Source: Minisyncoccota bacterium
GTDB lineage: Bacteria; Patescibacteriota; Minisyncoccia; Phycocordibacterales; DATDWN01
Assembly: GCA_036517395.1 (NCBI GenBank)
Contig: DATDWN010000013.1
Span: 2,191 to 66,190 of the forward strand
DNA length: 64,000 nt
Direction of reading: 5' to 3'
The translations under genes and the position numbers were made by a program. Below, in pieces: positions 8,408 to 56,724 of this stretch; the stretch's first letter is position 1; each line of letters begins with the position of its first letter. The notes under the pieces are model-generated. The model worked only from the letters and a program-made list of their open reading frames with translations, had not been told where the DNA came from and did not search any database.

Positions 8408-8869
8408 ATGTCTCAAAAATTTAAAAAGGGTTTCACCCCAGTACCAGAGCGAAGCTCGGTACGGGGTTTCACGCTTATCGAGTTACTTGTGGTTATTGCC
8501 ATCATAGGTATTTTATCTTCCATTGTTTTAGCATCACTTAACTCCGCCAGAGATAAAGCAGGGAATGCTGCTATAAAGGAAGATTTGCACGGACTTCGCA
8601 GTCAGGCGGAAATTTCTTATGACAACAACAATAATAATTATAGTACAGTCTGCGCCAACCAAAATGTTATAAATGCCATAAACAATGCTTTAATAGCGGG
8701 TAGCGATACTGGGACAGTGGCAACAAGATGCAACAATAGCGCAACCGCATGGGCAGCCAATGTAAAGTTGAAGACGGTTGAAGGTACTAGTAATTACTGG
8801 TGTGTGGATAGTACTGGAGTAGGAAAGGGGGAGGCTAATGAACTCGGTGGAGCAACCGTTTGTAGTTAA
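8408..8869 (+). CDS. Type IV pilin / pseudopilin with a class III signal peptide. The leader is extended by a 36-nt in-frame palindromic insertion.
   Basis: The prepilin motif is …KKGF|TLIELLVVIAIIGIL…, interrupted as KKGF-TPVPERSSVRGF-TLIEL. Confidence 0.7.
   Translation: MSQKFKKGFTPVPERSSVRGFTLIELLVVIAIIGILSSIVLASLNSARDKAGNAAIKEDLHGLRSQAEISYDNNNNNYSTVCANQNVINAINNALIAGSDTGTVATRCNNSATAWAANVKLKTVEGTSNYWCVDSTGVGKGEANELGGATVCS
8436..8466. repeat. Family-3 palindromic hairpin element (cccagtaccagagc-GAA-gctcggtacgggg) inserted in the pilin leader and flanked by a 9-bp direct repeat (gggtttcac)
   Basis: Related copies lie at 43452-43482 and 56655-56685. The core AGAGC-GAA-GCTC is shared with 40788-40815 and 55369-55394. 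Confidence 0.7.
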
Positions 8870-8889
8870 TATTTTTATCTGCGACGAGA

Positions 8890-8932
8890 GAGGAGCGCGT
8901 GAATGTGTAATCACATTCACAGCGTCCGAACG
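8890..8932 (+). ncRNA. Conserved structured motif family 2, copy B; followed by GC-rich nested hairpins at 8940-8998
   Basis: gaggagcgcgtgaatgtgtaatcacattcacagcgtccgaacg. The 9-bp perfect hairpin gtgaatgtg-taat-cacattcac replaces the gggagag-taat-ctctcac hairpin of copy A. Confidence 0.4.
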
Positions 8933-9084
8933 AGGAGTAGCAATGGTAAAACCCCGCCCCTCTGGGGCGGAACAGGGGTCCAGGGCTTGCCCTGGGGTTT
9001 CATACCATTGATAGACTAAATCTGAACAAAATAAACCCTATTGTTAGAGTTTATTTTGTTTTTATTGTATAATGCAGTGAAATT

Positions 9085-10932
9085 ATGGATCCCAATGCCA
9101 TCACATATTTTGCTGAGACGGACGCCAGGAATAAGAAGATAAAATTTGGCATAAAGGCCAAGGATCGCTTGAAGCACGTCTACGTAATAGGCAAGACGGG
9201 TATGGGCAAATCGACCCTCCTCGAGAACATGGCTATTCAGGATATTCAGAACGGAAACGGCATAGCCTTCGTCGACCCTCACGGAGGAACAGCTGAGAAA
9301 CTGCTCGATTATGTTCCAGAAAGCCGCGTAAAAGATGTGCTTTATTTTGCCCCGTTTGATTTGGAGTACCCCATATCTTTTAACCTCATCGAGGACATTG
9401 GGGCTGACAAAAGACACCTTGTGGTAAATGGCCTGATGTCCACATTTGAGAAAATCTGGGTCGACGCTTGGTCGGCTCGTATGGCATATATTTTGAACAA
9501 CTCGCTTCTGGCTCTTCTGGAATATCCCGGATCGACACTCCTCGGCGTCAACCGAATGCTCTCTGATAAAGACTATAGGAAAAAAGTGGTGGACAATGTC
9601 AAAGATCCATCGGTAAAATCCTTCTGGGTGGATGAGTTTGCAAAATATACTGAGAGATTTGCCGCAGAGGCAACTCCGGCTATTCAAAACAAAGTAGGAC
9701 AGTTCACCTCGAACCCTCTCGTTCGAAATATAATAGGTCAGCCGAAATCATCTTTTGACTTGCGCGAGATAATGGATAAGAAAAAGATTCTCATCGTCAA
9801 TCTCTCCAAAGGTCGCGTTGGTGAGGGCAATGCAAACCTCATCGGTTCGATGCTCATAACCAAAATATATCTAGCAGCTATGTCGCGCGCGGATTCCTCC
9901 GAGTCACAGCTGGCCAACCTGCCAAACTTTTATCTCTATGTGGACGAGTTCCAGTCTTTCGCAAACAAATCATTTGCCGATATTTTGTCCGAGGCCAGAA
10001 AATACAAACTGAACTTGACTATTGCTCACCAATACATAGAGCAGATGGAAGAAGAAGTGAGAGACGCTGTTTTTGGTAACGTCGGTACGATGATTACTTT
10101 CCGAGTCGGTGCTTTTGATTCTGAAGTTTTGGAGAAAGAGTTTGCGCCGACTTTTGAAGCGGTGGATCTGGTTGGTTTGGGTTTCGCTCAGGTTTATTTG
10201 AAGCTTATGATAGACGGTGTTTCTTCCCAGCCTTTCTCAGCCACTACCTTGGGTCCTATTGCAAAGCCAGATATTAGCTTCAAGGATGCTGTTATCACAT
10301 CATCTCGTGAGCAGTTTGGCCATCCTCGGGCGCAGGTGGAAAAGGAAATAGTGGATTGGCATGATTTGGGTACTGCAAGAGAAGTTAGGGACGGAAGTGC
10401 AGGGAGACCAAGGCCCGCCCTCCCTCCCGAGGAGGGAGTAGGCGGGGATAATCAAAATGTAAAACAGGTGGGAGAAAGACCGGAAGTACAGTTCAGAAAC
10501 GAAGTACAAAAAGAAGATCCTGAGGCCACCAAAAAAGCTTTCATGCAAGCTGCAGAGGAGTTGCGCAAAAAGGAGGGTGAGGAGAGACAGTCCCAGCACC
10601 GGAGTGTCCCAGCTAGCAGAGCCGCAGTACCAGAGCAGAGCTTGATACACGGCAAGCAGTACGATATGAGGCAGGAAAGGCTAAAAGATAATTTCAATAA
10701 ATCAGGAAACACTGTTTCTCTCTCAAGCCTGAAATCAGACAAGGACAAAAAAAATCCAACAAGAGAAAATATGTCCAGTTTAAAGGCGGCCCTTTCTAGT
10801 GTTATAAGTAAACCAAGAGAAAATCCTCAGAAGACGGAAATACAAACCAAATACAAGCCACAACCGCGACAATCAGAAAAGGTCTCCACAAAAGAAGTGC
10901 CAGAAGATGTCCTGCGCAATTTACTGAAATGA
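9085..10932 (+). CDS. P-loop ATPase of the TraD/VirD4 type-IV coupling protein-like (TrwB_AAD_bind / DUF87) family with a disordered charged C-terminal tail
   Basis: Walker A VIGKTGMGKST, Walker B LYVDEFQ, and a TIAHQ motif. Confidence 0.45.
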   Translation: MDPNAITYFAETDARNKKIKFGIKAKDRLKHVYVIGKTGMGKSTLLENMAIQDIQNGNGIAFVDPHGGTAEKLLDYVPESRVKDVLYFAPFDLEYPISFNLIEDIGADKRHLVVNGLMSTFEKIWVDAWSARMAYILNNSLLALLEYPGSTLLGVNRMLSDKDYRKKVVDNVKDPSVKSFWVDEFAKYTERFAAEATPAIQNKVGQFTSNPLVRNIIGQPKSSFDLREIMDKKKILIVNLSKGRVGEGNANLIGSMLITKIYLAAMSRADSSESQLANLPNFYLYVDEFQSFANKSFADILSEARKYKLNLTIAHQYIEQMEEEVRDAVFGNVGTMITFRVGAFDSEVLEKEFAPTFEAVDLVGLGFAQVYLKLMIDGVSSQPFSATTLGPIAKPDISFKDAVITSSREQFGHPRAQVEKEIVDWHDLGTAREVRDGSAGRPRPALPPEEGVGGDNQNVKQVGERPEVQFRNEVQKEDPEATKKAFMQAAEELRKKEGEERQSQHRSVPASRAAVPEQSLIHGKQYDMRQERLKDNFNKSGNTVSLSSLKSDKDKKNPTRENMSSLKAALSSVISKPRENPQKTEIQTKYKPQPRQSEKVSTKEVPEDVLRNLLK

Positions 10933-24884: not shown

Positions 24885-24950
24885 ATAGGGAATTCCAAGC
24901 CGGTTTCTTTTTGCTTTTTTCGTGTTAATATGACCAGATGCAAAGAATTT

Positions 24951-25087
24951 ATCCGCACACCAACATTGCCATTGTTCTGCTTTTTCAATAATTACTCTGA
25001 TAGATTTTGATAAAACATGACAGAAACAAATAATATGGGTATTTCCGAGCAGAACATAAAAAGAGATGGCAATGTTGGTGTGCGGAT
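24951..25087 (+). repeat. Inverted-repeat element family 1, copy 2 (91-nt spacer). The downstream arm spans the start region of the GT4 gene.
   Basis: atccgcacaccaacattgccattg … atggcaatgttggtgtgcggat. An internal TTGATA-18-TAATAT promoter-like sequence is present. Confidence 0.8.
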
Positions 25088-26204
25088 AAAAATTCTCTTT
25101 ATTATAGGCAATTTGGACGTCGGGGGAGCGGAAAAGCTTATAATCAATCAGGTTAAAAACATAGATAAAAACAAGTTTGTACCTCACTTGTGTACACTGT
25201 TTCCTTATGGAGACAATAATTATTCCGAGGTTTGGAAGGAACTCTCAGATATTCCATATCACAGATTTAATTTCAAAGGCCCGTATGATGTTTTTAGCTG
25301 GATAAAAGTGTGGTCTATTTTACGTAAGGAAAAATTTGATATATTCTGTTGCCACTTGTTTGAGTCGAACTTTATTATTCGAATACTAAATCTTTTTGTA
25401 GGCAGAAAACCAGTTTTCATTTTTGAACATAATGTTTATTTTAAAAAACAATGGTGGAAGATTTTAGCAGACAAGATATTGGCCAAGAAAACATCCAAAA
25501 TATTTGTCGATTCTCACGCTATTTTAAACTTTACTTCGGATCAGGAAAATATAGACAAGGATAAATTTGCAATCCTGCCCTATCCTATCGAACTATTGGG
25601 AGATAAGACTTTTGATTTGGCTAAAATAAAACATGATCTTGGATTACCCGACAATGCTTTTATCATCGGAACGGTAGCCCGTTTCGTTGAGCAGAAAGGC
25701 CTACCATATTTTATACAAGCTGCCGCTAAAATTTTGGAAAAAACCAAGCGTGAAGATATTTATTTTCTCCTTGTTGGCTACGGCAAAATGGAGCTAGATT
25801 TACGCATGATGGTGGATGACCTAAAAATAAATTCTCGATTACTCATTAGTCCTCCGAAAGACATAAAAGAAATTTTGCCTATTTTTGATATATTTGTTGT
25901 TCCATCTTTGTGGGAAGGTCAGCCAATCGCCATGTTGGAAGCCATGGCCTCAGGTCGCTCGGTTGTGGCAACAAAAGTCGGCGGTATTCCTGAAATATTG
26001 ATTGATGGGAAAAACGGTTTACTCTCGGAGCCGAAAGATCCCAATTCATTAGCCAAGGCTATTACTAAAATGTTGGAAGACGAGAAACTGCGAGTACGAG
26101 TTGGTATAGAGGCCAAAGGCACAGCTCACAACTATAGTATGCCAATCTATATAAACAAACTAGAGAAATATTTTCTCGATGCATATAATGAAAACGAAAA
26201 TTAA
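25017..26204 (+). CDS. Glycosyltransferase family 4. The true start is probably the GTG at 25080, giving MRIKILFIIGNLDVGGAEK.
   Basis: GT4 motifs FVVPSLWEGQPIAMLEAMASGRSVVATKVGGIPE. Confidence 0.7.
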   Translation: MTETNNMGISEQNIKRDGNVGVRIKILFIIGNLDVGGAEKLIINQVKNIDKNKFVPHLCTLFPYGDNNYSEVWKELSDIPYHRFNFKGPYDVFSWIKVWSILRKEKFDIFCCHLFESNFIIRILNLFVGRKPVFIFEHNVYFKKQWWKILADKILAKKTSKIFVDSHAILNFTSDQENIDKDKFAILPYPIELLGDKTFDLAKIKHDLGLPDNAFIIGTVARFVEQKGLPYFIQAAAKILEKTKREDIYFLLVGYGKMELDLRMMVDDLKINSRLLISPPKDIKEILPIFDIFVVPSLWEGQPIAMLEAMASGRSVVATKVGGIPEILIDGKNGLLSEPKDPNSLAKAITKMLEDEKLRVRVGIEAKGTAHNYSMPIYINKLEKYFLDAYNENEN

Positions 26205-28159: not shown

Positions 28160-28180
28160 AGATTATGCAGAAGAAAATAA

Positions 28181-28316
28181 ATCCGCACACCAACTTTGTC
28201 ATTGTTCTGTTTTTTCAAACTAGTATTTTCGTTTTTTGAATATCACTCCCAAAATAGATTCGTATATAACATATGTTTCAGAACACAAAAAATCATGACA
28301 AAGTTGGTGTGCGGAT
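28181..28316 (+). repeat. Inverted-repeat element family 1, copy 3 (90-nt spacer)
   Basis: atccgcacaccaactttgtcattg … atgacaaagttggtgtgcggat. Confidence 0.8.
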
Positions 28317-30381: not shown

Positions 30382-30387
30382 AAATAA

Positions 30388-30525
30388 ATCTGCATACCAA
30401 TTTTGCCATTGTTCTGATTTTTCAAAAAGAAATATATAAGTTAATCGATATACTGCTATGAAATTAAATTAAAGATAAATTATGAAAGAAGAACAAAAAA
30501 TCGATGGCAAATTTGGTGTGCGGAT
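30388..30525 (+). repeat. Inverted-repeat element family 1, copy 4 (92-nt spacer)
   Basis: atctgcataccaattttgccattg … atggcaaatttggtgtgcggat. Confidence 0.8.
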
Positions 30526-38643: not shown

Positions 38644-38651
38644 TTTTCTCT

Positions 38652-38697
38652 TGTTCTCTTTTCACTTTTACCCTGCATTCGTGCAACCTTTTTCTTG
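38652..38697 (+). other. 18-bp RNA-type hairpin directly 3' of the VR, with three G·U wobbles, so strand-specific
   Basis: ccctgcattcgtgcaacc-tttttctt-ggttgcgcgggtgcaggg. Confidence 0.5.
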
Positions 38698-38933
38698 GTT
38701 GCGCGGGTGCAGGGTAATTTCGTATACTAAACATGGCTGTTAAGCTAGTCAGTGTCTATTTTACAAAAATAATATTGATGGTAGTTTGCCAAACATAAAA
38801 CTGCTTGTGAGTGTTTATGCATAGATGATTACAAGTGTGATGATGCAACACAGTGCCTGAGACATCAGGGTATAACACAGAGACTTTGGAAACAGAGAAT
38901 CGGTGAAATGGAAGAATGCTCACAAAAAAGACT

Positions 38934-39049
38934 GTTCTCGTAACTCGGACGGCAACGTGCCGATCGTGTACTGGAACCCGAACACGGCCAAGGTCAAGGT
39001 GAACTGGTACAGCGTCGACAACTCGAATCCGACGAACGGTCTCCGTCAG
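38934..39049 (+). repeat. DGR template repeat (TR), rich in AAC codons
   Basis: It is non-coding in the VR frame. 14 adenines correspond to non-A bases in the VR. Confidence 0.8.
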
Positions 39050-39072
39050 AAGTTTTAGCAAAGAATCTCGAT

Positions 39073-39360
39073 CTAGGTCGGGATTTTTTGTTGTTCCATA
39101 TATTTTATCCATTGATTTGTCATCTTCGATGTTTCTATGACAAGCCCTTCTATTCTTATGTACGCTTTCTCCTCGATGATTTTCAGTTCATGTTCCATGC
39201 GGACAAAATTCTTTAGGATTTCCAAAAGTATTCGAGCCTTTTCTAAAGTTTCCAGCTTATTATTTTTGTGAGAGTAGTAAGCTTTTATAAGCAAGTACAT
39301 TATTTCTTGGGCCGTCCCTTCGATGTATGCATGAATTCCAAGTTTGTCAGATTTCGGCAA
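39073..39360 (-). CDS. Avd-like small helical accessory protein of the DGR (four-helix-bundle family), divergently oriented to the RT
   Basis: 95 aa, predicted all-helical and charged. It sits between the TR and the RT. The assignment rests on position and composition. Confidence 0.4.
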   Translation of the reverse strand: MPKSDKLGIHAYIEGTAQEIMYLLIKAYYSHKNNKLETLEKARILLEILKNFVRMEHELKIIEEKAYIRIEGLVIETSKMTNQWIKYMEQQKIPT

Positions 39361-39434
39361 TTTCTTTCCTGTCTGGTATATGACAATGTATACTTGTTTA
39401 ATACTATGAATAATAGAAATATCGCTGTTGTTGC

Positions 39435-39443
39435 GGGGGGGGG
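39435..39443. repeat. Homopolymeric G9 tract in the avd–RT divergent intergenic region
   Basis: ttgcgggggggggagc. Confidence 0.6.
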
Positions 39444-39458
39444 AGCACTATTGGAAAT

Positions 39459-40457
39459 TTGTTTCATAATATTGTCAGTCTATCAAATTTGCTCCACGCA
39501 TGGGAAGAGTTCAAAAGAGGAAAGTCAAAGAAAAAAGATGTCGCTCTCTTTGAGCTTAATCTCGAGGATAATATTTTTGAGTTACACAGAAGCCTAGTCT
39601 CTAAAGCATATCAGCACACGGAGTATGAGGCTTTTTATATTAGTGATCCAAAACTAAGGAATATACACAAGGCATCTGTGCGTGATCGTGTTGTTCATCA
39701 AGCTGTATATAGAATTTTGTGCCAGATTTTTGATAAACATTTTATATATGATTCTTACTCATCGCGAAAATCGCGGGGAACACATTTGGGTGTAAGGCGT
39801 TCTTATAAGGCTTGTCGTAAAGTAAGTAAAAATTGGAGAAGAAAAATCTACATACTGAAATGCGATGTCAGAAAATTCTTTGATTCAATGGATCACTCTA
39901 TTCTGCGTGTTCTTATTGAGAAAAAAGTATTATGTTTGGAGACAATGAGGCTGGTCGATTTGGTTTTGGAGAGTTTCAAGAAAGAAACGGGAAAGGGTCT
40001 GCCACTAGGCAATGTTACAAGCCAACTTTTTGCCAATATTTACCTCGATCAATTTGACCAGTTTGTGAAGCATGGCCTTAAAATGAGGTATTATTTCAGA
40101 TATTGCGACGATTTTATTATTATTTCTGAAAATAAACAGTTTTTATCTGAACTTGTGGATAAGATTAAAATATTTCTGGATCAAAATCTGCTACTCAAAC
40201 TTCATCCTGATAAAGTTGAGATCAGAAGCATGAGGCAGGGAATAGATTTTCTCGGTTATGTGTGTCTGCCGAACATGATTGTATTGAGGACCAAGACAAA
40301 AAAAAGAATTATAAAAAAGATAAAGATAATGTTTGGAAAATTAAAAGCGGGAGAGATTTCACTTACCACATTCAAAAACACTCTAATGTCTTATCTAGGC
40401 GTCGTATCTCACTGTTGTAGTAGGGAAATAGAATTTTACATAAAACGCTTTTTATAA
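39459..40457 (+). CDS. Reverse transcriptase, DGR type
   Basis: RT motif 4 reads LPLGNVTSQLFANIYL (the SQ variant typical of DGR RTs). Motif 5 reads RYCDDFII (YxDD). It is adjacent to the TR/VR pair. Confidence 0.8.
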   Translation: MFHNIVSLSNLLHAWEEFKRGKSKKKDVALFELNLEDNIFELHRSLVSKAYQHTEYEAFYISDPKLRNIHKASVRDRVVHQAVYRILCQIFDKHFIYDSYSSRKSRGTHLGVRRSYKACRKVSKNWRRKIYILKCDVRKFFDSMDHSILRVLIEKKVLCLETMRLVDLVLESFKKETGKGLPLGNVTSQLFANIYLDQFDQFVKHGLKMRYYFRYCDDFIIISENKQFLSELVDKIKIFLDQNLLLKLHPDKVEIRSMRQGIDFLGYVCLPNMIVLRTKTKKRIIKKIKIMFGKLKAGEISLTTFKNTLMSYLGVVSHCCSREIEFYIKRFL

Positions 40458-40542
40458 AAAGTTATCCACACTTTTTATAAAAATCCAACTTGATTTTATT
40501 TTTTTGTACTATAATTAACGCAGGTCGGAAACAAAAAAATAA

Positions 40543-40681
40543 ATCCGCACACCAACTTTGATCTCGTTGCATTTGTCTCAAAGTTTAGTTGTACATCTTG
40601 AATTTAGATATAACTTCTAAATTTTGTTTGACTGTTTATGTGGCAACAGGGAGACAAGACCAAAGTTGGTGTTCGGATAAA
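40543..40681 (+). repeat. Inverted-repeat element family 1, copy 5 (100-nt spacer; arms extended by gcaacagggagac)
   Basis: atccgcacaccaactttg…ctcgttgc … gcaacagggagacaagaccaaagttggtgttcggataaa. Confidence 0.7.
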
Positions 40682-40744
40682 GTATACTTTATTAAAAAAT
40701 AATTTAGTTGAATACTTGTCACAGAGTAGTCAACAATAAATATC

Positions 40745-40786
40745 ATGGCAGCAAAAAAGAAGAAGAAAGCAAAGAAGCGAGCATAG
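40745..40786 (+). CDS. Mini-ORF encoding MAAKKKKKAKKRA, between two family-1 elements
   Basis: An ATG…TAG read directly. Coding status is unproven. Confidence 0.15.
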   Translation: MAAKKKKKAKKRA

Positions 40787-40855
40787 TCCCGTAGTAGAGC
40801 GAAGCTCACTACAGGATTGCATCTCTGCTTTTCTAAAAAATCAATTTGATTTTTC

Positions 40856-40879: not shown

Positions 40880-40885
40880 GTTTTT

Positions 40886-41020
40886 ATCCGCACACTAATT
40901 TTGGCATCGTCTCCCTGTTGCTATATAGAGGGGCTGCAAAAGTATCAGATTGTATCTAAATGTGGCTGTATATCTAGAATTTGAGACTAGATGCAACTAT
41001 GCCAAATTTAGTGTGCGGAT
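40886..41020 (+). repeat. Inverted-repeat element family 1, copy 6 (91-nt spacer), 40 nt upstream of secA
   Basis: atccgcacactaattttggcat…gtctccctgttgc … atgccaaatttagtgtgcggat. Confidence 0.8.
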
Positions 41021-41060
41021 GAATGTTAAAATCAGCATTTTATGCTAAAATGAGTCACAT

Positions 41061-43592
41061 ATGGCAATTTTAGATAAGCTATTCGGCTCAGAATCCTCAA
41101 GGACTTTGAAGGAAATACAGCCCCTAGTTGATAAAATTAACGCTCTGGAGAGCGGTATTTCCGTGCTGTCTGATGCAGAACTGAAAGCTAAAACCCCTGA
41201 ATTCAAAAAACGTCTCGTACAAGGTGAGACCTTGGATGATTTATTGCCTGAGGCCTTTGCTGTAGTGCGCGAGGCCAGTAAGAGATGTCACGACGAGAGA
41301 CATTTCGATGTTCAACTTATGGGTGGCATCGTTTTACATCATGGAAGTATTGCCGAAATGCGAACAGGAGAAGGAAAAACTCTTATTGCTACTTTGCCGG
41401 CCTATCTTAACTCTCTTGCTGGACTCGGTATTCATGTGGTTACAGTAAACGATTATCTTTCACGTCGTGACGCGGTTTGGATGGGAGAGATTTATGATTT
41501 TCTTGGAGTTTCTGTTGGAGTAATAAACAACGCCGAATCTTTTATATATGACCCAACACATAAAGAGCTAGATGAAAAAAGAGACGAAGTAGCTTCTTTC
41601 AAAGTTGTGACAGAGTTTCTTCGTCCGTGCACAAGACGCGAGGCTTATCACGCCGATATAACATATGGAACGAACAATGAATACGGTTTTGATTATTTGA
41701 GGGATAACATCGAGTATGAAGAAAAAAATCTGCGTCAGAGAGAACCAAATTACGCTATTGTTGACGAGGTCGACTCTATTCTTATTGACGAGGCTCGTAC
41801 ACCTCTCATTATTTCTACGCCGACAATTGATTCTGACGAGATGTACAAAAAATTTGCCGATATATCGTCAAAACTGGAGACGGGTGAACATTATGCTGTT
41901 GATGAAAAGTTCAAAACAATATCGCTCACTGATTCTGGCATCACCAAAGCCGAGGAACTTCTCGGTGTTGAAAATATATACACCGAAAAAGGTATAAAAT
42001 ACGTGCATCATCTGGAAACAGCCGTTCGTGCGACGGCCCTTTTTCACAAAGACAAAGACTATGTGGTCAAGGATGGTGAGGTGGTGATAGTTGATGAGTT
42101 CACCGGCCGCTTGCAACCAGGAAGACGATGGTCAGAGGGCTTGCATCAGGCCATAGAAGCCAAAGAACACGTGGTAATCCAGAAGGAATCCAGAACTTTT
42201 GCTTCTATAACATTTCAGAACTATTTTCGGCTTTACAAAAAGCTTTCGGGCATGACTGGAACTGCGGTTACTTCATCGGAAGAGTTTTATAAAGTTTACG
42301 GTCTTCATGTTATTTCCATACCGACAAACAAACCAAATGCAAGGACTGATCGCAATGATCTTATTTTTCAAACAGAGTCGGGTAAGTTCAAGGCTATAAG
42401 CAAAGAAGTTAAAGAAAGACATGAAAAAGGCCAACCAGTTCTCATCGGTACGGTATCGATTGAGAAAAACGAGATGCTTTCAGAATATTTAAAAGCTGAG
42501 GGCATACCTCATGAAATTTTGAACGCTAAAAACCATGGAAGAGAGGCGGAAATTCTAGCTCAAGCGGGAAAACCAAAGTCTGTAACAGTTGCTACAAACA
42601 TGGCTGGTCGAGGAATTGATATAAAACTGGGAGGAAATCCCGGGTCGCTCGAGGCATATGAGGAGGTCAAATCAAAAGGCGGGCTTTTTGTTCTAGGTAC
42701 CGAGCGTCATGATGCGAGGCGTATAGACAATCAGCTCCGAGGTCGCTCCGGTAGACAGGGCGATTCCGGCGAGACGCAGTTTTTCGTTTCTCTGGATGAC
42801 CATTTGATGCGAGTTTTTGGCGGGGACTCCATAAAAAACATGATGGGTAAGCTCGGCATTGGGGAAGATGAGGCCATTGAAAACAAAATGATTACGCGGT
42901 CGCTCGAAAGCGCACAAGAGAAAATCGAAGGTTTCAACTTTGACGCACGAAAACATGTTTTGGAGTTTGACGATGTCCTGAATTTTCAGAGAAAGATTTT
43001 TTACGGCAGAAGAAGAGAAATTCTTCTGGGTAATGTCGAGATTGTTAAAAACTACATCAGAGAATTGTTGGTGGATGTAGATGAAAAAGAAAGGGAAGCA
43101 ATAGAAAAAAAACTCGAAAACAAAGACCCGCAGTATAGCGAGGCTTTGCGTCGAGTCATTCTACAAGTGATGGATATGTTTTGGGTTGAGCATTTGGAAG
43201 TGATGGATTATATGCGCTCTTCTGTTAACCTTCGCGCCTACGGTCAGAGAGACCCGCTTGTTGAATACAAACGCGAAGGACTGTCGCTTTTCAAAAATAT
43301 GGAAATTTCCATCGGCCAAGAAATTTTGAAACTTATTCCCCAAATAGTGCCTGAGATTAAGTTATCCAATGAACAGGTTAAGTTTGTGGAAGGAATGGAA
43401 GGAGCAAGTGCCCCAATTTCTCTTTCCACACCAAAAACTCCAGATGGACACCCCAGTACCAGAGCAAAGCTCGGTACGGGGCAAGGAAAAATTGGTCGTA
43501 ACGATCCCTGCTTCTGTGGAAGCGGTAAAAAGTTCAAAAAATGTGGGGAATTGAAAACCGAGGAACATCAGAAGATGATGAAAAATAAGTAG
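41061..43592 (+). CDS. secA: Preprotein translocase ATPase SecA
   Basis: …AEMRTGEGKTLIATLPAYLNSL…, DEAD-like motor motifs, and a C-terminal zinc finger KIGRNDPCFCGSGKKFKKCGE. Confidence 0.9.
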   Translation: MAILDKLFGSESSRTLKEIQPLVDKINALESGISVLSDAELKAKTPEFKKRLVQGETLDDLLPEAFAVVREASKRCHDERHFDVQLMGGIVLHHGSIAEMRTGEGKTLIATLPAYLNSLAGLGIHVVTVNDYLSRRDAVWMGEIYDFLGVSVGVINNAESFIYDPTHKELDEKRDEVASFKVVTEFLRPCTRREAYHADITYGTNNEYGFDYLRDNIEYEEKNLRQREPNYAIVDEVDSILIDEARTPLIISTPTIDSDEMYKKFADISSKLETGEHYAVDEKFKTISLTDSGITKAEELLGVENIYTEKGIKYVHHLETAVRATALFHKDKDYVVKDGEVVIVDEFTGRLQPGRRWSEGLHQAIEAKEHVVIQKESRTFASITFQNYFRLYKKLSGMTGTAVTSSEEFYKVYGLHVISIPTNKPNARTDRNDLIFQTESGKFKAISKEVKERHEKGQPVLIGTVSIEKNEMLSEYLKAEGIPHEILNAKNHGREAEILAQAGKPKSVTVATNMAGRGIDIKLGGNPGSLEAYEEVKSKGGLFVLGTERHDARRIDNQLRGRSGRQGDSGETQFFVSLDDHLMRVFGGDSIKNMMGKLGIGEDEAIENKMITRSLESAQEKIEGFNFDARKHVLEFDDVLNFQRKIFYGRRREILLGNVEIVKNYIRELLVDVDEKEREAIEKKLENKDPQYSEALRRVILQVMDMFWVEHLEVMDYMRSSVNLRAYGQRDPLVEYKREGLSLFKNMEISIGQEILKLIPQIVPEIKLSNEQVKFVEGMEGASAPISLSTPKTPDGHPSTRAKLGTGQGKIGRNDPCFCGSGKKFKKCGELKTEEHQKMMKNK
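43452..43482. repeat. Family-3 palindromic hairpin element inside the secA coding sequence, in frame (encodes …STRAKLGTGQ…)
   Basis: ccccagtaccagagcaaagctcggtacgggg. It lies in the linker preceding the zinc-finger tail. Confidence 0.6.
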
Positions 43593-46905: not shown

Positions 46906-47145
46906 ATGAACAAAAAAGTAACAATATATTCAACGCCAACATGTCATTTTTGCAACATGGCAAAAGATTATTTCAAGGAAAACAATGTAGAGTACACGGC
47001 TTTTGACGTCTCGGTCGATCAGGATAAGAGGAAGGAAATGATGGAAAAATCAGGCCAGCTTGGCGTGCCTGTCATTATCATAGGCGACAAAATTATCATA
47101 GGTTTCAATAAACCAAAAATTGCAGAGCTTTTGGATATAAAGTAG
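46906..47145 (+). CDS. Glutaredoxin-like protein (NrdH/YruB type)
   Basis: IYSTPTCHFCNMAKDYF…GVPVIIIG. Confidence 0.6.
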   Translation: MNKKVTIYSTPTCHFCNMAKDYFKENNVEYTAFDVSVDQDKRKEMMEKSGQLGVPVIIIGDKIIIGFNKPKIAELLDIK

Positions 47146-47233
47146 AAATATTTGAACGCTAGTACAAGGTGAGACCTTGTACTGTTAAGGATGTTTCTCG
47201 GAGATATAATTCAGAAAGTTCCGAAAATAAGTT

Positions 47234-47305
47234 GCCGTCGTAGCTCAACGGATAGAGCAAATTCGTCCTAAGAATGAGATAGAGGTTCAATTCCTCTCGA
47301 TGGCA
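47234..47305 (+). tRNA. tRNA-Arg (anticodon CCT)
   Basis: Manual fold: acceptor gccgtcg/cgatggc, anticodon loop gtCCTaa, T-arm agagg-ttcaatt-cctct. Confidence 0.7.
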
Positions 47306-47340
47306 CACAATTTTGATTTTTTGAGCAAATTTGCTACTAT

Positions 47341-47622
47341 ATGCCTATGTCACCAGAGGAAAGAGAACTTTTACAGAAAAGCGTTGCCTTAGCCGAGGAA
47401 AACAATAATATTCTTCGTTCGATAAAGCGGGGGATGCGATGGGCAAGGATTATGAGTTACATATACTGGTTCTTTATTATCGGGTCGGCAGTTGGGGCTT
47501 ACTATATAATCCAGCCATACCTAGAGCAGCTTATGTATGCATACAGCGGAGCAAAAAGTTCCATCGGTGACGGAAGCGGTTTCCAAGCCGTACTTAATAG
47601 TTTGAAACAGGTTAGTAAATAA
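47341..47622 (+). CDS. Hypothetical small membrane protein
   Basis: ORF lying between two tRNA genes, with one TM helix. Confidence 0.3.
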   Translation: MPMSPEERELLQKSVALAEENNNILRSIKRGMRWARIMSYIYWFFIIGSAVGAYYIIQPYLEQLMYAYSGAKSSIGDGSGFQAVLNSLKQVSK

Positions 47623-47626
47623 ACAT

Positions 47627-47703
47627 GCCGAGGTAGCTCAGTTGGTAGTAGCGCTTCCCTGAAGAGGAAGATGTCGCCAGTTCGACTCTGGCCCTCGGCA
47701 CCA
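47627..47703 (+). tRNA. tRNA-Phe (anticodon GAA), CCA encoded
   Basis: Acceptor gccgagg/cctcggc, anticodon stem cttcc/ggaag with loop ctGAAga, T-arm gccag-ttcgact-ctggc. Confidence 0.75.
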
Positions 47704-47711
47704 AAATAGGT

Positions 47712-48182
47712 TTATCCCTTTACCCTAAGTTTCGTCTGTCTATTTTTATCAATTTTTGGCAATCGTAAAATAAGAAGGCCGTGTTTTTCTATGGCGTCCG
47801 CCTCATCAACCTGTACTTCGGCAGGAAGCATAATAGTTCGTGAAAATGTGCCCCAGTAGAGTTCTTGGTGGAAATAGTCCTCATCTTTGACAAATCTTTC
47901 CGTCTCGCGTTTGCCTTTTATCGTGACCATGTCGCGGGTGATAGATATGTCGAGGTCTTCAGGCTTTACTCCGGCCACCATGCTTTTTATAACTATTTCC
48001 GTCGGTGTTTGGTAGAGGTCAACTGTAAGCTCTCCATCCTCGCTTTCATCATCAAACCAAGCCTCGCCATTGTTGTCTCCCCTGATGGGTATTTTTTTGC
48101 TACTAACAATTTCCGACTCAGCTTCTTCGTCCATTTTCATACTGCCGGTTAGTTTTTCAAAAAATGATCTATTGTCTTTCAT
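47712..48182 (-). CDS. Hsp20/alpha-crystallin family small heat-shock protein
   Basis: Alpha-crystallin domain pattern …GELTVDLYQTPTEIVIK…LPKIDK. Confidence 0.6.
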   Translation of the reverse strand: MKDNRSFFEKLTGSMKMDEEAESEIVSSKKIPIRGDNNGEAWFDDESEDGELTVDLYQTPTEIVIKSMVAGVKPEDLDISITRDMVTIKGKRETERFVKDEDYFHQELYWGTFSRTIMLPAEVQVDEADAIEKHGLLILRLPKIDKNRQTKLRVKG

Positions 48183-48882
48183 AAGTGTTTTGATTTATAT
48201 TTTTTATTTTTTCAAACATTAAAAGTATGGCTACAATTCCGACCCAGACCACACCAAATGTAAGAAAAATGTTTTTTTCTGCACTGTTAATTATAAGTAA
48301 ATTGAAGCCAGTATGCAACACGATAGCAACGATAACTCCAGCAATAGTGTAAAATACTTTATCAACATGCGATTTATAGAAAGCTAGAGCCATATATACA
48401 CCTATGGTGGCGGACGACATGATGTGGAGAAGTGACGCACCTACAAATCGCAGGTTTCCAGAGACGATGGTGTCAACCAGATTTCCGGCGTGAATTGATG
48501 GTATGAGAAAGAGTGCATTTTCAAAGGTGACAAAACCGAGGGCCGACACTATGAGGTAAATCATGTCGTCTACTGGCTCATCCGCCACTTTTTTGTTTCG
48601 TAGGGCGATAAAATATACAAATGCAAACTTAGCGGTCTCTTCTATGGTTGCCCACAGGATAAATGACAACAAATGCGGGTCTGGTTGATAGTTATAAACA
48701 AGCTTTTCGAGCGGTAAAACTACTAGGACCGCTAACATACCACCGAGGAAAGATAGAGTAATCATTTTTGCCGGTTCTGGGTGGCTATCTTCTTTCAGCC
48801 AGAACCACATCCATATCAGGGCTGGAATAAGCCCAAGAATAAAAGCTAGGATGAAAGGATAGTTTTGAAGGAAAGATAGCAT
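48169..48882 (-). CDS. PrsW-family intramembrane metalloprotease
   Basis: Conserved EExxK (WATIEETAKF) and FxxxH (…HIMSSA…) motifs. Confidence 0.5.
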   Translation of the reverse strand: MLSFLQNYPFILAFILGLIPALIWMWFWLKEDSHPEPAKMITLSFLGGMLAVLVVLPLEKLVYNYQPDPHLLSFILWATIEETAKFAFVYFIALRNKKVADEPVDDMIYLIVSALGFVTFENALFLIPSIHAGNLVDTIVSGNLRFVGASLLHIMSSATIGVYMALAFYKSHVDKVFYTIAGVIVAIVLHTGFNLLIINSAEKNIFLTFGVVWVGIVAILLMFEKIKNINQNTYERQ

Positions 48883-48940
48883 AATTTTTAATTTAAACTT
48901 TAAAATTTAGACTTAATTTTAAATTATTAAATTCTAAATT

Positions 48941-51100
48941 TTAAATTGTTGGCTCAGGCCACTCTTCGATCATGAGAAGAGTTTTCTTATCCATATTTTG
49001 CCAAATTTCTTCCGTGATAAATGGCATGAATGGATGTAAAGCTCTGAGAGTAGCGTCTAGGGTCTGAAGTAAAAATTGCTTACGTCGACTCTTCTCTTCC
49101 TCCGTGCCTCTTTGGAAGATTGTTTTGCTTTCTTCTATTATTTTATCCGCGAGAGTGTGCCAGACATAATGATACAATTTTTCGGCGGCAAGATAAAAAC
49201 GAAAATTGTCCATATCTTTTGTAACATCCTCAAGCACGGCTCGTCTTTCGGCTCTGAGTGTTTCGTCAAATTCGTTCCTCTCCGGAAAACCATTTTCCAT
49301 ACTTTCCCCCTCTGTATTTTCCAGGATAAACCTCGTAATGTTCCAGATTTTATTGGCGAAGTTTTTATAGGCCTTAATTTTGTCTTCTGAGAGGGCGAGT
49401 GAAGTTCCTGGTGTATTTCCTATAACCAGTGCCATACGCAGAGCATCTGTACCAAATTTCTCCGTGAGTATCATAGGATCGATAACATTTCCCTTGCTTT
49501 TGCTCATCTTTAGTCCTTTGCCATCTAAAACAAGCCCATGAAGATAAACGTTTTTGAATGGCACCTTCCCCGTGATATACAGTCCGAGCATAATCATGCG
49601 TGTCACCCAGAAGAAAATAATTTCTCCAGCCGTTTCCATGACATCCGTTGGATAAAAAGTTTTGAAGTCTTCGTGATCTGGAAACCCCAGTGTTGCAAAA
49701 GGCCATTGTCCTGATGAAAACCATGTATCAAATGTGTCATTGTCTTGGGCCACCCCTCCTCCACATTTGTCGCATTTCGATATTTTATTTTCCAAATCTA
49801 CCATACCGTGACTGCACTGGGTGCATATTTTAGCTGGAATAGGAATGCCCCAGACTATTTGCCTAGATATATTCCAATCCATAATATTTTGTAGCCAGTG
49901 AGTGGTTATTTTCTTATAGTGATCTGGTATATATACGATCTCATCATTCTCTATTTTTTCCAATGCTTTCTCCGCCAGTGGCTTCATTTTTACAAACCAC
50001 TGACTTTTTATCTGGGGCTCAATGATTGTTCCGCATTTATAGCAGGTTCGGACAACGTGCTTGTAGTTCTCGTCTATCTTTTCCACTAAACCTTTTTTTT
50101 GCAATTTTTCTAGTATCAAAGGTCTAGCTTTTTTGATGTGCTGACCAGCAAACTCTCCGGCAATGGGTAACAGTTTACCCTGTTCATCTATTATCTGCTC
50201 CTTGTCTAGATGATGTCTCTCGGCTATTTCAAAGTCAGCCGTGTCGTGCCAAGGAGTGATAGTCATAACTCCAGTACCGAACTCCATATCAACAGCCGAG
50301 TCTTTTATAATGGTCGCCTCAACAGGCCCATTTATCCATTCGAGGTTTATTTTTTGGCCATCTTTATAATCAGCGTATCTTTTATCGTCAGGATGCATGA
50401 CCACATATTTATCGCCAAATTTTGTTTCAGGTCTGGAAGTGGCTATAGTGAAAGGTCCGTATTTGAGGTAGTAGAAACTATCAGTTCGTTCCTCGTCTTT
50501 GATTTCTAGATCAGAAAAAGAGGTTTGATGTTTTGTACACCACGAGACAATTCTCGATCCTCTATATACCAAATCATCGTCATACAGTTTTTTGAATGTT
50601 TGATAAACGGTTTGTATGATGTCTGGATCAAGTGTAAATTTTTCTCGAGACCAGTCACATGACGCCCCCATTTTCCTTATTTGCGATTTTATGTTACGAG
50701 AATTGTTTAGTGTGAAGTCCAGTATCTCTTTGTAAAGTTGTTTTGGTTCGATTTCAAATCTAGTTCGACCTTCTTTCTCTAGTTGTTTTTCGTACACAAC
50801 TTGGGTTTCAAATCCCGCATGGTCTAGACCGGGGAGCCATAGAGTTTTGAATCCTTGCATCCTTTTATATCGAATCATTATGTCCTCTATAGTCATAACA
50901 AGTCCATGACCGGCATGAAGTGAGCCGTTGGCATTTGTCGGTGGCATTATTAGTGTAAAGGGTTTAGCATTAGGGTCAGTATTCTTGTCGGGATTGAAAA
51001 AACCGCTTTCCTCCCAGATTTTGTAGATCCTTTCCTCTGTTTCTTGGGGCTTATATGGGGATAAGAAAATTTCCTTCATCCCGTTAGAGTTTTTGATCAT
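48941..51100 (-). CDS. valS: Valine--tRNA ligase (short form without the C-terminal coiled coil)
   Basis: PFTLIMPPTNANGSLHAGHGL (HIGH region, ValRS type) and KMSKSKGNVIDP. Confidence 0.75.
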   Translation of the reverse strand: MIKNSNGMKEIFLSPYKPQETEERIYKIWEESGFFNPDKNTDPNAKPFTLIMPPTNANGSLHAGHGLVMTIEDIMIRYKRMQGFKTLWLPGLDHAGFETQVVYEKQLEKEGRTRFEIEPKQLYKEILDFTLNNSRNIKSQIRKMGASCDWSREKFTLDPDIIQTVYQTFKKLYDDDLVYRGSRIVSWCTKHQTSFSDLEIKDEERTDSFYYLKYGPFTIATSRPETKFGDKYVVMHPDDKRYADYKDGQKINLEWINGPVEATIIKDSAVDMEFGTGVMTITPWHDTADFEIAERHHLDKEQIIDEQGKLLPIAGEFAGQHIKKARPLILEKLQKKGLVEKIDENYKHVVRTCYKCGTIIEPQIKSQWFVKMKPLAEKALEKIENDEIVYIPDHYKKITTHWLQNIMDWNISRQIVWGIPIPAKICTQCSHGMVDLENKISKCDKCGGGVAQDNDTFDTWFSSGQWPFATLGFPDHEDFKTFYPTDVMETAGEIIFFWVTRMIMLGLYITGKVPFKNVYLHGLVLDGKGLKMSKSKGNVIDPMILTEKFGTDALRMALVIGNTPGTSLALSEDKIKAYKNFANKIWNITRFILENTEGESMENGFPERNEFDETLRAERRAVLEDVTKDMDNFRFYLAAEKLYHYVWHTLADKIIEESKTIFQRGTEEEKSRRKQFLLQTLDATLRALHPFMPFITEEIWQNMDKKTLLMIEEWPEPTI

Positions 51101-55368: not shown

Positions 55369-55394
55369 ACGTAGTAGAGCATAGCTCACTACAT
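55369..55394. repeat. Family-3-related hairpin (gtagtagagc-ATA-gctcactac) overlapping the tsaD stop codon
   Basis: The arms are the same as at 40788-40815, where the loop is GAA. Confidence 0.5.
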
Positions 55395-56615
55395 GGCTAG
55401 TTTTAGGTTACCACTAGCGATTATTTTTGTCTGTTTGTCCAGTATTTTAGGGTTTAGTATTACGTTTAAATATGTTGCGGCCGCTATCATGAGCGAGTTA
55501 TCTGTGGCTAGAGAGTTGGTGGGTATTTTTAATATTAAATCCGAGAATTTGTCCGCAAGTTTAGTAAAGGCTTGTCTGATTTTTTTATTTGCTATCACAC
55601 CGCCTGCTACGATGAGTGTTTTTGCTCCTGTTCTTTCCAATGCCTCATTTGTTTTCTTCAGTAGCACATCTACAACGGCATCCTCAAACTCTCTGGCCAG
55701 ATCAGCTTTCTCATCTATCGTCATCTTGCTATGATCCTTGCTGAATTTATCTCGAATATAATAAAGCACAGCAGTTTTCAGTCCGGAAAAAGAAAAATTG
55801 CTATCACCGGAGTGTATCATTGGTCTGGGAAGTCTGGCTATGTTTGGAAGGTTGTTTTCTCTGGCGAATTCTGCCAATCGTGATATCTCAGGGCCGCCGG
55901 GGTAGGGAAGACCCATCATTCTAGCCACTTTATCAAAAGCTTCGCCCACCGCGTCATCAAGAGTTTGCCCCATTACTTCATATTCTCCCCACCCCTTCAT
56001 ACTGACTAGCTCAGTATGTCCACCAGAAATAAGTAGTGCTAAAGCGGGGAACCGTATTGTATTGGTTTTTTTTGAAAATTGAAAATTGAAAATTGAAAAT
56101 TCTTCTGTTTTGCAAATCAAAACAGAAGCGATATGTCCTTCCATATGATTTATTGGCACAACAGGAATGTCCCATAGTTTACCCAAAGCTTCCGCGCAAC
56201 TTATACCCACCCACAGAGCGGGGGCAAGTCCAGGACCCGATGTCACTCCAATCACATCTATCTTCGGCTTTTCTATGTTTTTTAAAGCAGATATTAGCCC
56301 TTCAAACAACCCATCCTCTCTAGAAACAATATATTTTATTTCTTGCCACTTCTCCTCGCCGTAGCTCGGCGAAGTCGGATTTTCAGCATACATCTCCGCT
56401 TGCTTCAATACGTTCATAAGAAGTGGAGGCAGGTTTTTGCCATGCTCTCTTTTTGCAAGCATCGGATAGACTCCGCCGTATTCTCTGTGTGTGTTTACTT
56501 GTGAGAAAAGAGAATTCCCGAGTATTTTGAAAACAGGGGATTCTGTTCCACCCTCTGCTTCTACAATACTAACAGCCGTTTCATCGCAACTCGTTTCAAT
56601 CGAAAGTATTTTCAT
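55389..56615 (-). CDS. tsaD: tRNA N6-adenosine threonylcarbamoyltransferase TsaD (Kae1/TsaD family), with an internal insertion containing a (GAAAATT)x4 repeat
   Basis: MKILSIETSCDETAVSIV…, …LISGGHTELV…. Confidence 0.75.
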   Translation of the reverse strand: MKILSIETSCDETAVSIVEAEGGTESPVFKILGNSLFSQVNTHREYGGVYPMLAKREHGKNLPPLLMNVLKQAEMYAENPTSPSYGEEKWQEIKYIVSREDGLFEGLISALKNIEKPKIDVIGVTSGPGLAPALWVGISCAEALGKLWDIPVVPINHMEGHIASVLICKTEEFSIFNFQFSKKTNTIRFPALALLISGGHTELVSMKGWGEYEVMGQTLDDAVGEAFDKVARMMGLPYPGGPEISRLAEFARENNLPNIARLPRPMIHSGDSNFSFSGLKTAVLYYIRDKFSKDHSKMTIDEKADLAREFEDAVVDVLLKKTNEALERTGAKTLIVAGGVIANKKIRQAFTKLADKFSDLILKIPTNSLATDNSLMIAAATYLNVILNPKILDKQTKIIASGNLKLAM

Positions 56616-56654
56616 AATTTTATATACTCAGAAAATTAAACATATCACTTCTCG

Positions 56655-56685
56655 CCCCGTACCGAGCTTTGCTCTGGTACTGGGG
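56655..56685. repeat. Family-3 palindromic hairpin element just upstream of the tsaD start, in opposite orientation
   Basis: ccccgtaccgagctttgctctggtactgggg. Confidence 0.7.
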
Positions 56686-56724
56686 TCATCACAACTTGTC
56701 TCAATGCTTAAGATTTTCATTCCT
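56686..56724 (-). repeat. Diverged duplicate of the tsaD 5' end (encodes MKILSIETSCDD) upstream of the hairpin element
   Basis: atgaaaatcttaagcattgagacaagttgtgatgac matches the tsaD start atgaaaatactttcgattgaaacgagttgcgatgaa. Nearly all differences are synonymous. Confidence 0.6.

Follow-up and report, generated by a model that had tools for sequence, protein, structure and literature searches.

The genomes of Patescibacteria are tiny and streamlined, yet a 64,000-nucleotide (nt) stretch of one of them (contig DATDWN010000013.1, from a Minisyncoccota bacterium; hereafter the window) holds at least seven recent copies of a small hairpin that is very probably an inserted, mobile and selfish palindromic element, several of them lodged in essential or surface-exposed genes. 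Comparison with the nearest sampled relatives shows that the copies entered the source lineage after its split from them, and the family extends across many classes of Patescibacteria. The system combines several unusual points, namely minimal size, conserved bulged adenines, nesting within loops, target duplications of erratic length and a core that is nearly the same in distant classes.

Hairpin copies and their anatomy

A sequence-only reading of the window had listed five related hairpins, at 8436-8466, 40788-40815, 43452-43482, 55369-55394 and 56655-56685, and all five lie where it placed them. The pilin copy (8436-8466) and the secA copy (43452-43482) differ solely in the first loop base (GAA versus AAA), and hairpin 56655-56685 matches the secA copy exactly in reverse complement, whilst those at 40788-40815 and 55369-55394 keep the centre AGAGC-nnA-GCTC and replace the stem GTACC/GGTAC with GTAGT/ACTAC. 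In general form the unit, ~31-39 nt long, is (A)CCCC-A-GTAnn-A-GAGC-nnA-GCTC-nnTAC-GGGG, in most cases with a short CA(A/G)G(C) tail behind it. The 31-nt hairpin has a 13-bp stem, a 3-nt loop whose last base is A and, on its 5' arm, two bulged adenines that are conserved. With R1, a covariance model derived from 70 copies taken from external loci and the window, every copy scores much better in one direction than in the reverse and the element is therefore asymmetric; since the bulges lie on the 5' arm and the loop ends in A, every copy has a defined orientation. Scanning the window with R1 returned seven significant matches (33-64 bits) and a weak one at E = 0.31, adding three members to the original five: 8030-8072, the degenerate 10620-10658 and the weak 5718-5745. 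The copies and the genes that host them are as follows.

8434-8472, plus strand (hairpin 8436-8466): canonical copy in the type IV pilin gene; R1 54.7 bits, E = 2e-11
43449-43487, plus strand (hairpin 43452-43482 plus CAAGG tail): canonical copy in secA; R1 63.9 bits
56649-56687, minus strand (hairpin 56655-56685): canonical copy upstream of tsaD; R1 60.1 bits
55364-55402, plus strand (hairpin 55369-55394): GTAGT-stem copy between tsaD and a convergent gene for a 1267-aa surface protein; R1 42.2 bits
40784-40822, plus strand (hairpin 40788-40815): GTAGT-stem copy upstream of secA; R1 41.2 bits
8030-8072, plus strand: variant copy CCCCAGTAGTA-GACGGAGATACCGTC-ACTACGGGGCAGGC in the DUF4015 gene; R1 40.1 bits
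10620-10658, plus strand: degenerate copy of the nested subtype (outer stem CCGCA...ACGG) in the TraG/VirD4-like gene; R1 33.3 bits
5718-5745, minus strand: weak, decayed copy between the terminator that follows the 16S rRNA gene and a small GC-rich open reading frame (ORF); R1 13.9 bits, E = 0.31
8408-8869, plus strand: host gene, type IV pilin/pseudopilin (Pfam PF07963; N_methyl motif at residues 16-41)
41061-43592, plus strand: host gene secA (Pfam SecA domains; SEC-C motif at residues 813-828)
55389-56615, minus strand: host gene tsaD (Pfam PF00814), bracketed by two copies
56686-56740, minus strand: copy A of a duplicated ~55-nt tsaD segment (upstream region plus first 11 codons, MKILSIETSCD), from alignments with L225 and L226

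The motif GTASYAGAGCNNNGCTC occurs seven times in the window against 0.43 expected, a count that none of 100 shuffles reached, and AGAGCNNNGCTC six times against 0.23. Canonical copies fold at -14 to -21 kcal/mol (z = -4 to -6). The variant copy at 8030-8072 shares its outer stem and tail with them and differs in its inner stem-loop. At 5718-5745 the plus strand folds at -18.1 kcal/mol and the minus strand at -6.5; that this copy in the rRNA spacer might be a transcribed master copy was considered and rejected, for it is degenerate, lies after a terminator, and has G-T pairs on one strand that are compatible with chance. No Rfam family reached its gathering score over any hairpin in the window or in the external loci L127, L179 and L148, and relaxed Rfam scans of locus L028 and of the spacer between the 16S rRNA and tRNA genes returned noise only. 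Read from the sequence, the GTACC variant holds a stop codon in none of its six frames, and the inserts found inside genes are all multiples of three in length (36, 36 and 60 nt in the window, 42 nt in L027).

Empty sites in relatives

The source of the window is a Parcubacteria-type genome, whose proteins the data sources list as Candidatus Paceibacterota. The syntenic contigs used for comparison come from the nearest sampled relatives, whose proteins are 84-86% identical and whose genes are 66-84% identical at the DNA level to those of the window; the hairpins at 8436, 43452 and 56655, set among genes of that divergence, are 97-100% identical to one another. The R1 scan of 58 kb of the relatives' largely syntenic DNA gave zero matches, against the seven significant ones in the 64-kb window. 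That the pilin and secA hairpins are inserted palindromic elements, as the sequence-only reading had proposed, rather than ancestral sequence, is borne out by the orthologues for which it had called: each insert is exactly 36 nt, both are missing from the DNA of the closest relatives, and they are lacking in 119 of 120 pilins and 118 of 120 SecA proteins. Identical proteins with the inserts are found again on 11 (pilin) and 9 (SecA) contigs from NCBI, JGI and ENA, and this recurrence across three data sources rules out an assembly artefact.

The pilin gene aligns with those of three relatives without a gap save the single one of 36 nt. The non-duplicated part of the insert is 27 nt long (8437-8463) and is flanked by the 9-bp direct repeat (gggtttcac) already noted in the sequence-only reading, the target duplication GGGTTTCAC at 8428-8436 and 8464-8472; the window accordingly reads AAAAA-GGGTTTCAC-(27 nt)-GGGTTTCAC-GCTT where the relatives read AAAAAAGG(T/C)TTCAC(G/T)(C/T)T. 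The insert adds 12 in-frame codons, TPVPERSSVRGF, between the leader and the mature N-terminus, just as had been described, and the duplication rebuilds the G|F context of prepilin cleavage. Among 120 homologues these residues occur in the window pilin only, and homologues of 141 aa lack the 12 residues. The lengthening of the prepilin leader that had been predicted is from about 8 to 20 residues, in a family in which 101 of 120 homologues have leaders of 4-12.

In secA the insert encodes HPSTRAKLGTGQG and, in agreement with the earlier description, sits in frame in the linker just before the zinc finger (SEC-C), where relative L102 shows one 36-nt gap. Among the 120 SecA homologues, 118 run from ..TPDGE directly into KIGRNDPC; the two carriers are the window protein and P0138 (79% identical overall), which has HPSSRAQHATGQG at the same point. 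The DUF4015 gene (6942-8258) holds a 60-nt in-frame insert (about 8036-8095) that starts with the variant hairpin and is missing in L095 and L099 at both protein and DNA level, and the TraG/VirD4-like gene (9085-10932) has an in-frame insert of ~37 codons, missing in L095 and L096, which holds the degenerate copy 10620-10658. The same TraG/VirD4-like gene has a second in-frame insert of ~43 codons, likewise missing in relatives, with an unrelated GC-rich hairpin, CCCGCCCTCCCTCC-CGA-GGAGGGAGTAGGCGGG, at 10414-10446.

Upstream of secA, copy 40788-40815 follows immediately on the stop of a conserved 13-codon ORF (MAAKKKKKAKKRA) and is missing in L102 and L103, and the relative keeps the tiny ORF without the hairpin. 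This lysine-rich ORF (window 40746-40787; MATKKKKKKRA in L102:9866-9901), with a conserved promoter-like region and a terminator just upstream of secA, may be a leader peptide or a regulatory ORF.

The two copies that had been reported to bracket tsaD do so, and both are missing in relative L225. On the 3' side the convergent neighbour lies 3 nt away in L225 with no hairpin between, versus ~100 nt in the window, where an arm of hairpin 55369-55394 provides tsaD with its TAG stop and adds two residues (AM). On the 5' side a segment of ~55 nt is duplicated: copy A is cut off by hairpin 56655-56685, into which it runs to make a false ORF of 30 codons, and copy B (about 56581-56635) serves as the functional start of tsaD. 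The two encode identical 11 residues and share 26 of 35 coding bases (74%, by hand count from the alignment).

Among the loci that were selected for carrying the hairpin, an empty allele was recovered once, where the 42-nt in-frame insert in a long ORF of L027 is set against L220. The idea that the hairpins are DNA-uptake sequences was rejected, the copies being added DNA and not motifs written into existing codons.

Breadth of the family and covariation of the stem

The exact GTACC variant was sought, with 19 specified bases, in GTDB representative genomes amounting to 596 Gb, a search in which about four chance matches were estimated. It was found at 94 loci, nearly all of them in Patescibacteria of many classes, including Parcubacteria groups, Saccharibacteria, Microgenomates groups, Peregrinibacteria and Doudnabacteria. 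A few metagenome-assembled genomes (MAGs) labelled otherwise also matched, among them L025 and L031, whose matches have no CCCC/GGGG flanks and look like chance. The variant had no match in IMG/VR, and a phage origin was rejected on that ground. A scan of metagenomes in which the two inner stem positions were left free returned at least 119 loci.

Among the matches listed from that scan, the free positions form Watson-Crick pairs in 113 of 122 copies, where chance would give 1 in 16, in line with the covarying stems that the sequence-only reading had described. The pairs are GT/AC (61), GC/GC (32), CC/GG (11), CT/AG (4), GA/TC (4) and GG/CC (1), and five stem variants were each seen more than once. 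In the alignment of 70 sequences 98% of cells are paired, versus 28-40% when partner columns are slid; its never-varying columns were fixed by the search patterns and are uninformative either way. Judged from these sequences, stem pairing is under selection. Conservation of the flanks is asymmetric, with A-C before CCCC and C-A-(A/G)-G-(G/C)-C after GGGG; the two bases ahead of CCCCA are A in 55 of 92 and C in 53 of 92 copies, and could belong to the target or to the element. Loops are AAA, GAA, AGA, ATA or GTA, the third base being nearly always A. The remark that such families had not yet been mapped in Patescibacteria holds as far as we could trace: literature searched by sequence and by topic, with incomplete coverage, yielded no description of this one.

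Placement, orientation, duplications and nesting

Gene calls at the external loci are crude, and 179 copies could be classified, with 119 intergenic and 60 in ORFs, an intergenic share whose comparison with a 'mostly coding' genome background rests on an assumption. Under a stricter test 21 of 98 copies lie deep inside ORFs of at least 150 codons, and all six reading frames are used. Orientation relative to genes shows no bias (40 sense versus 39 antisense for tandem intergenic copies, 35 versus 25 within coding sequence), convergent gaps hold 18 of the 119 intergenic copies, with no enrichment over their share of gene pairs (194 of 1390, a 14% baseline), and gene 3' ends are not preferred, the median distances being 103 nt from the upstream stop and 123 nt from the downstream start. 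In the window six of eight copies point along the leading strand, as judged from the skew switch near 48 kb, a bias short of significance.

The 225 arm occurrences resolve into 208 single hairpins, 8 with a nearby partner (mostly nested) and 9 with a distant partner or none; arms split by 0.1-4 kb and bracketing a gene were not seen in 1.6 Mb of carrier loci. In nested copies (for example L040, L042, L046 and L081) an inner copy, with outer stem CCGCA..ACGG and tail CAAG or CAAAG, sits after the first loop base of the outer one, and reading the inner copy and its tail out restores a GAA, AAA or AGA loop with no duplication; window copy 10620 is of this nested subtype. The 5' boundary of the element is sharp ((A)CCCCA), and its 3' tail varies from 0 to about 19 nt. 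Clean flanking duplications of at least 8 bp accompany 6 of 210 copies versus 0.4 expected, a handful of external copies have clean duplications of 7-11 bp, and in L048 a partial duplicate of a tRNA 5' end, ~21 nt long, precedes the hairpin. Taken together, the placement, random orientation, tolerated in-frame inserts and nesting fit a selfish element filtered by selection and not a terminator or regulatory RNA.

A universal target duplication was rejected, the excess being small and partly confounded by intergenic tandem word arrays. These AT-rich arrays of short repeated words often flank hairpins, in the window at 2757-2866, 8256-8322 and 48882-48948 (word TTAAATTCTAAATT) and at many external loci (with words such as CTTTCAA, GACCAAC and CGCAAAA), and they make target duplications hard to recognise. 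A different arrangement is seen in a Parcubacteria MAG (L028:4900-5620), where a long-range stem closes a ~110-nt unit made of two hairpins, the present element being one arm of it; this unit occurs three times beside a tRNA gene, each repeat having a duplicate of the tRNA 3' end, next to a small GIY-YIG gene.

A second mobile family and a shared pilin site

The window also hosts a family of MITEs (miniature inverted-repeat transposable elements) with CCGCACACCAA ends, present in six copies of ~150 nt, each with terminal repeats (TTT)ATCCGCACACCAAnTTTGCCAT.

2109-2263: MITE copy
24943-25099: MITE copy
28173-28328: MITE copy
30380-30537: MITE copy
40535-40690: MITE copy
40881-41037: MITE copy

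The two upstream of secA are missing in relative L102, and further copies lie at L223:1526-1595 and L224:83-152. In other species 72-nt in-frame versions occupy the same G-F-T codons of the pilin (P0031, P0043, P0068, P0087), with a duplication of ~8 bp, and L134 and L200 hold mini-hairpin forms ~30 nt long; these genomes therefore shrink inverted-repeat elements to bare hairpins. The recurrence of two unrelated elements at the pilin G-F-T codons points to target preference combined with tolerance, the latter because the leader is cleaved off, and the site GGnTTyAC may be either a preferred target or a tolerated one.

The Y1 transposase gene

The sequence-only reading had proposed a RAYT-like Y1 transposase gene at 985-1617 (RAYT, REP-associated tyrosine transposase; REP, repetitive extragenic palindrome) as a partner of the hairpins, and this was not borne out. 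The gene matches Y1_Tnp in Pfam at E = 1e-5, and scores 21.5 bits with the RAYT model, whose cut-off is 80. It is bracketed by a different palindrome, CACTTGGCGG..CCGCCAAGTG (946-972 and 1640-1676), a third copy of which lies in frame inside the gene (1414-1440), and all three are conserved with the gene in relative L095. Yet L095 has no AGAGC hairpin in the 20 kb scanned with R1. Within the 8-kb stretches examined, a Y1 homologue is found at 2 of the 94 hairpin genome loci and is adjacent to the hairpin in neither. With its own palindrome conserved in a relative that has no AGAGC hairpins, the gene is an unlikely partner. The Y1 cassette is flanked, in the window only, by a 72-nt duplicate (85% identical; 665-736 and 1677-1748) of the 3' end of the upstream gene, which is homologous to the SecD/SecF gene of L095.

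Comparison with known systems

Rickettsia palindromic elements (RPEs), attributed to Ogata and colleagues in 2000, are reportedly selfish palindromic repeats found in frame in protein-coding genes, essential ones included. They measure about 100-150 bp, fall into families RPE-1 to RPE-8 and are confined to one genus; we know of no enzyme that mobilises them and, to our knowledge, neither loop nesting nor variable target duplications have been described for them. The likeness to RPEs that the sequence-only reading had drawn is apt as to behaviour: insertion is in frame and leaves the genes intact (pilin, secA, DUF4015, TraG-like; L027 versus L220), the extra peptide is tolerated, both intergenic and genic sites are used, and the hosts are host-dependent bacteria with reduced genomes. 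The Patescibacteria elements differ in being only 31-39 nt long and in keeping a near-identical core across many classes. We claim no sequence relationship, the two being set apart by size and host and not by a direct comparison with RPE consensus sequences. Y1 transposition makes no target duplication, and RAYTs are usually single-copy. IS1397 and ISKpn1 are full insertion sequences of the IS3 family that encode their own transposase and target REP loops; the nested hairpins of L040, L042, L046 and L081 resemble them in entering the loop of an existing palindrome at a fixed position, and differ in that the inserting unit is another tiny hairpin. IS200/IS605-derived elements associated with palindromes insert immediately 3' of a specific tetra- or pentanucleotide, make no target duplication and are biased in strand relative to replication; set beside them, the hairpin has A and C as the commonest bases ahead of CCCCA (target or element), a duplication in the pilin, and a strand distribution in the window that is not significant. 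Intrinsic terminators are unlike the window hairpins, which have no T-run, and unlike the family as a whole, which is randomly oriented with many copies in coding sequence.

REPs are described as GC-rich imperfect palindromes of 20-40 bp with bulges and many dispersed copies (PMC3733652, PMC3116915, PMC2817692), mostly extragenic with occasional intragenic copies and with an unpaired GTAG or CGTC tetranucleotide tag at one palindrome end (PMC3733652). Our element is likewise a short, GC-rich, imperfect palindrome in many dispersed copies, and the same genome has a Y1 gene flanked by palindromes. It differs in that its GTA(G/C) is paired in the stem with (C/G)TAC in 70 of 70 aligned copies, leaving no unpaired tag; in that copies are single and not in inverted pairs (as in REP doublets forming hairpins, REPIN, or bacterial interspersed mosaic elements, BIME) and show no preference for gene 3' ends or convergent gaps; and in that the local RAYT-like gene is not flanked by the AGAGC hairpin and at least one hairpin insertion has a target duplication. 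Bacterial MITEs such as Correia/NEMIS, RUP and ERIC are non-autonomous, with inverted-repeat ends and sometimes target duplications (reviews PMC10969869, PMC3184786). The hairpin shares with them arms that are inverted repeats (with two single-base bulges), in-frame landing and presence or absence between relatives; it is far smaller, its arms are 3 nt apart, its duplications vary in length, and the 1.6 Mb of carrier loci yielded no parent insertion sequence. The element thus falls outside REP/RAYT, RPE and MITE by their defining features, and its behaviour matches that of RPEs and of intragenic REPs as portrayed in PMC3733652.

How the hairpins may move

The explanation that we favour, and that taken as a whole is probably right, is of a small non-autonomous selfish palindromic DNA element, widespread in Patescibacteria, which would be recognised and moved in trans as a folded single-stranded hairpin. 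Its copies have landed mostly between genes and also in genes, at points that tolerate 12-20 extra codons (the cleaved pilin leader, the SecA linker and the variable loops of DUF4015 and TraG-like proteins); there the inserts would simply be translated, and in the pilin the extra residues would be removed together with the leader. Recognition of a folded single strand is suggested because the bulges and the pairing are conserved, rather than the stem sequence at two positions, and because new copies land at a fixed point in the loops of existing ones. Considered alone, this mechanism is a tentative proposal that may well prove wrong. The leading candidate for the mover would be a single-strand (HUH/Y1-type) transposase encoded elsewhere, the Y1 gene of the window probably not being it. 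Rather doubtful is a further reading, in which the hairpin is the mobile unit of a so far undescribed transposition or templated-insertion system specific to Patescibacteria and an enzyme acting in trans reads a hairpin with two flipped-out adenines, targets single-stranded loops and leaves widely variable duplications; were it true, the near-identical core would be owed either to horizontal spread that is frequent among these episymbionts or to a conserved host factor on which the element depends.

Several points weigh against the favoured explanation. The target duplications are inconsistent and fit no canonical transposase, the pilin having one of 9 bp, secA none or one of at most 3 bp, DUF4015 none that is evident and tsaD one of ~55 nt. 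The last may be a footprint of recombination rather than transposition, because the duplicates are only 74% identical although the hairpin is pristine, and several external duplications, which sit in arrays of short tandem words, may be something other than genuine target duplications. Neither a mobilising enzyme nor a longer autonomous element with these ends was found in the 1.6 Mb of carrier loci. For a REP-like element it is unusual that distant classes retain an exact core of 19 nt, and translation of the inserts is presumed.

Rival accounts meet difficulties of their own. A host-function hairpin that is not mobile, serving as terminator, RNA-stability or processing element or protein-binding site and kept by selection, would account for the strong conservation of core and bulged adenines across classes, for the T-runs that follow some external copies (L005, for example) and for copy 55364 lying between convergent genes; it is nonetheless highly improbable and already largely refuted by the absence of copies at orthologous sites in relatives, their presence in coding sequence in all six frames, their random orientation without 3'-end preference, and the want of T-runs in the window copies or of an Rfam family at gathering score. 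Were the hairpins instead the REPs in a REP/RAYT pair, with the Y1 protein of 985-1617 excising and inserting them as single-stranded DNA, the weak RAYT match of a Y1_Tnp protein encoded in the window would find its place, as would the synteny and single copy of that gene in a relative, which is usual for RAYTs, the REP-like size, GC-rich imperfect pairing, bulges and mostly extragenic position of the element, and the loop-targeted nesting, which suits a single-strand enzyme. This is distinctly improbable given that the Y1 gene carries another palindrome (CACTTGGCGG..CCGCCAAGTG), kept in L095 without the AGAGC hairpin, that its RAYT score is far below the cut-off and its homologues are almost never found with the hairpin, and that inverted REP pairs are not seen; the pilin copy has a target duplication, whereas Y1 transposition makes none. 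Moreover, GTAG/GTAC is paired in the stem and is not an unpaired 5' tag (as the tag is defined in PMC3733652).

A staggered-cut transposase acting on a collapsed MITE, in which the arms would be the terminal repeats of a shrunken DDE-type transposon, is suggested by the clean 9-bp duplication in the pilin and the few other clean ones of 7-11 bp, by a second family in which collapse to a hairpin does occur (forms of ~150 nt, 72 nt and ~30 nt), and by the likeness of termini between the two families (CCGCA-G-TACCA versus CCGCA-CACCA). It is unlikely all the same, since the two conserved single-base bulges would set double-stranded binding sites out of register, duplications are not of fixed length (0-11 nt and up to about 55 nt), no autonomous partner with split ends was found in the carrier loci, and loop insertions are nested without duplication. 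Templated insertion would dispense with a dedicated transposase, if a reverse transcriptase, or a polymerase that switches templates, copied a hairpin-ended RNA or DNA into breaks or forks. Such a process would give one sharp and one ragged end and variable duplications; a sharp 5' end and a 3' tail of 0 to ~19 nt are observed, duplications range from 0 to about 55 nt (with the ~21-nt partial tRNA duplicate in L048 among them), the host supplies outer stem bases at the pilin and DUF4015 junctions (microhomology), and the reverse transcriptase of a diversity-generating retroelement lies 330 nt from copy 40788. That enzyme, however, belongs to a specialised retroelement with adenine-specific differences between template repeat and variable repeat (TR/VR), and has a homologue in one other carrier locus only (L036), ~3 kb from the hairpin. 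An RNA source was not found (the 5718 spacer copy is degenerate and follows a terminator), and the account does not explain the conservation of one hairpin sequence across classes; we regard templated insertion as quite unlikely.

Implications

As a marker of very recent genome change, the hairpin family can separate close strains in metagenomes. It also amounts to a natural test of which sites in essential proteins, such as SecA, pilins and aminoacyl-tRNA synthetases, can take 12-20 extra residues. For annotation it carries a warning, in that genes bearing an insert resemble divergent or extended proteins, and the 5' duplicate of tsaD makes a false short ORF. Finally, the family offers a handle on the mobilising enzyme through phylogenetic profiling, an enzyme that might be a compact, hairpin-recognising DNA-insertion activity.

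Other features of the window

The diversity-generating retroelement upstream of secA spans 37879-40457, with its variable repeat (38519-38634) at the 3' end of ORF 37879-38643, a template repeat at 38934-39049 and the reverse transcriptase at 39459-40457. The mismatches within the 116-nt repeat, about a dozen, are all at template adenines. In relative L102 a Wzy-like gene is followed after about 250 nt by secA, and the retroelement cassette appears to be absent there.

The 16S rRNA gene (2673-5360) is interrupted, with Rfam matches at 2673-3293 and 4068-5360 and an ORF at 3466-4116 between them; a faint LAGLIDADG match in the relative's equivalent of this ORF suggests an rRNA intron with a homing endonuclease. 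The spacer from the 16S rRNA gene to tRNA-Ile (5680-6133) contains a strong terminator (5680-5708) and a GC-rich ORF (5793-6062; 89 aa, apparently a membrane protein), and this GC-rich, heavily structured stretch looks like foreign DNA in the spacer of the rRNA operon. Around 47000-49000 the GC skew reverses, with its cumulative maximum near 48 kb, and the main gene strand goes from plus to minus, which probably marks the replication terminus.

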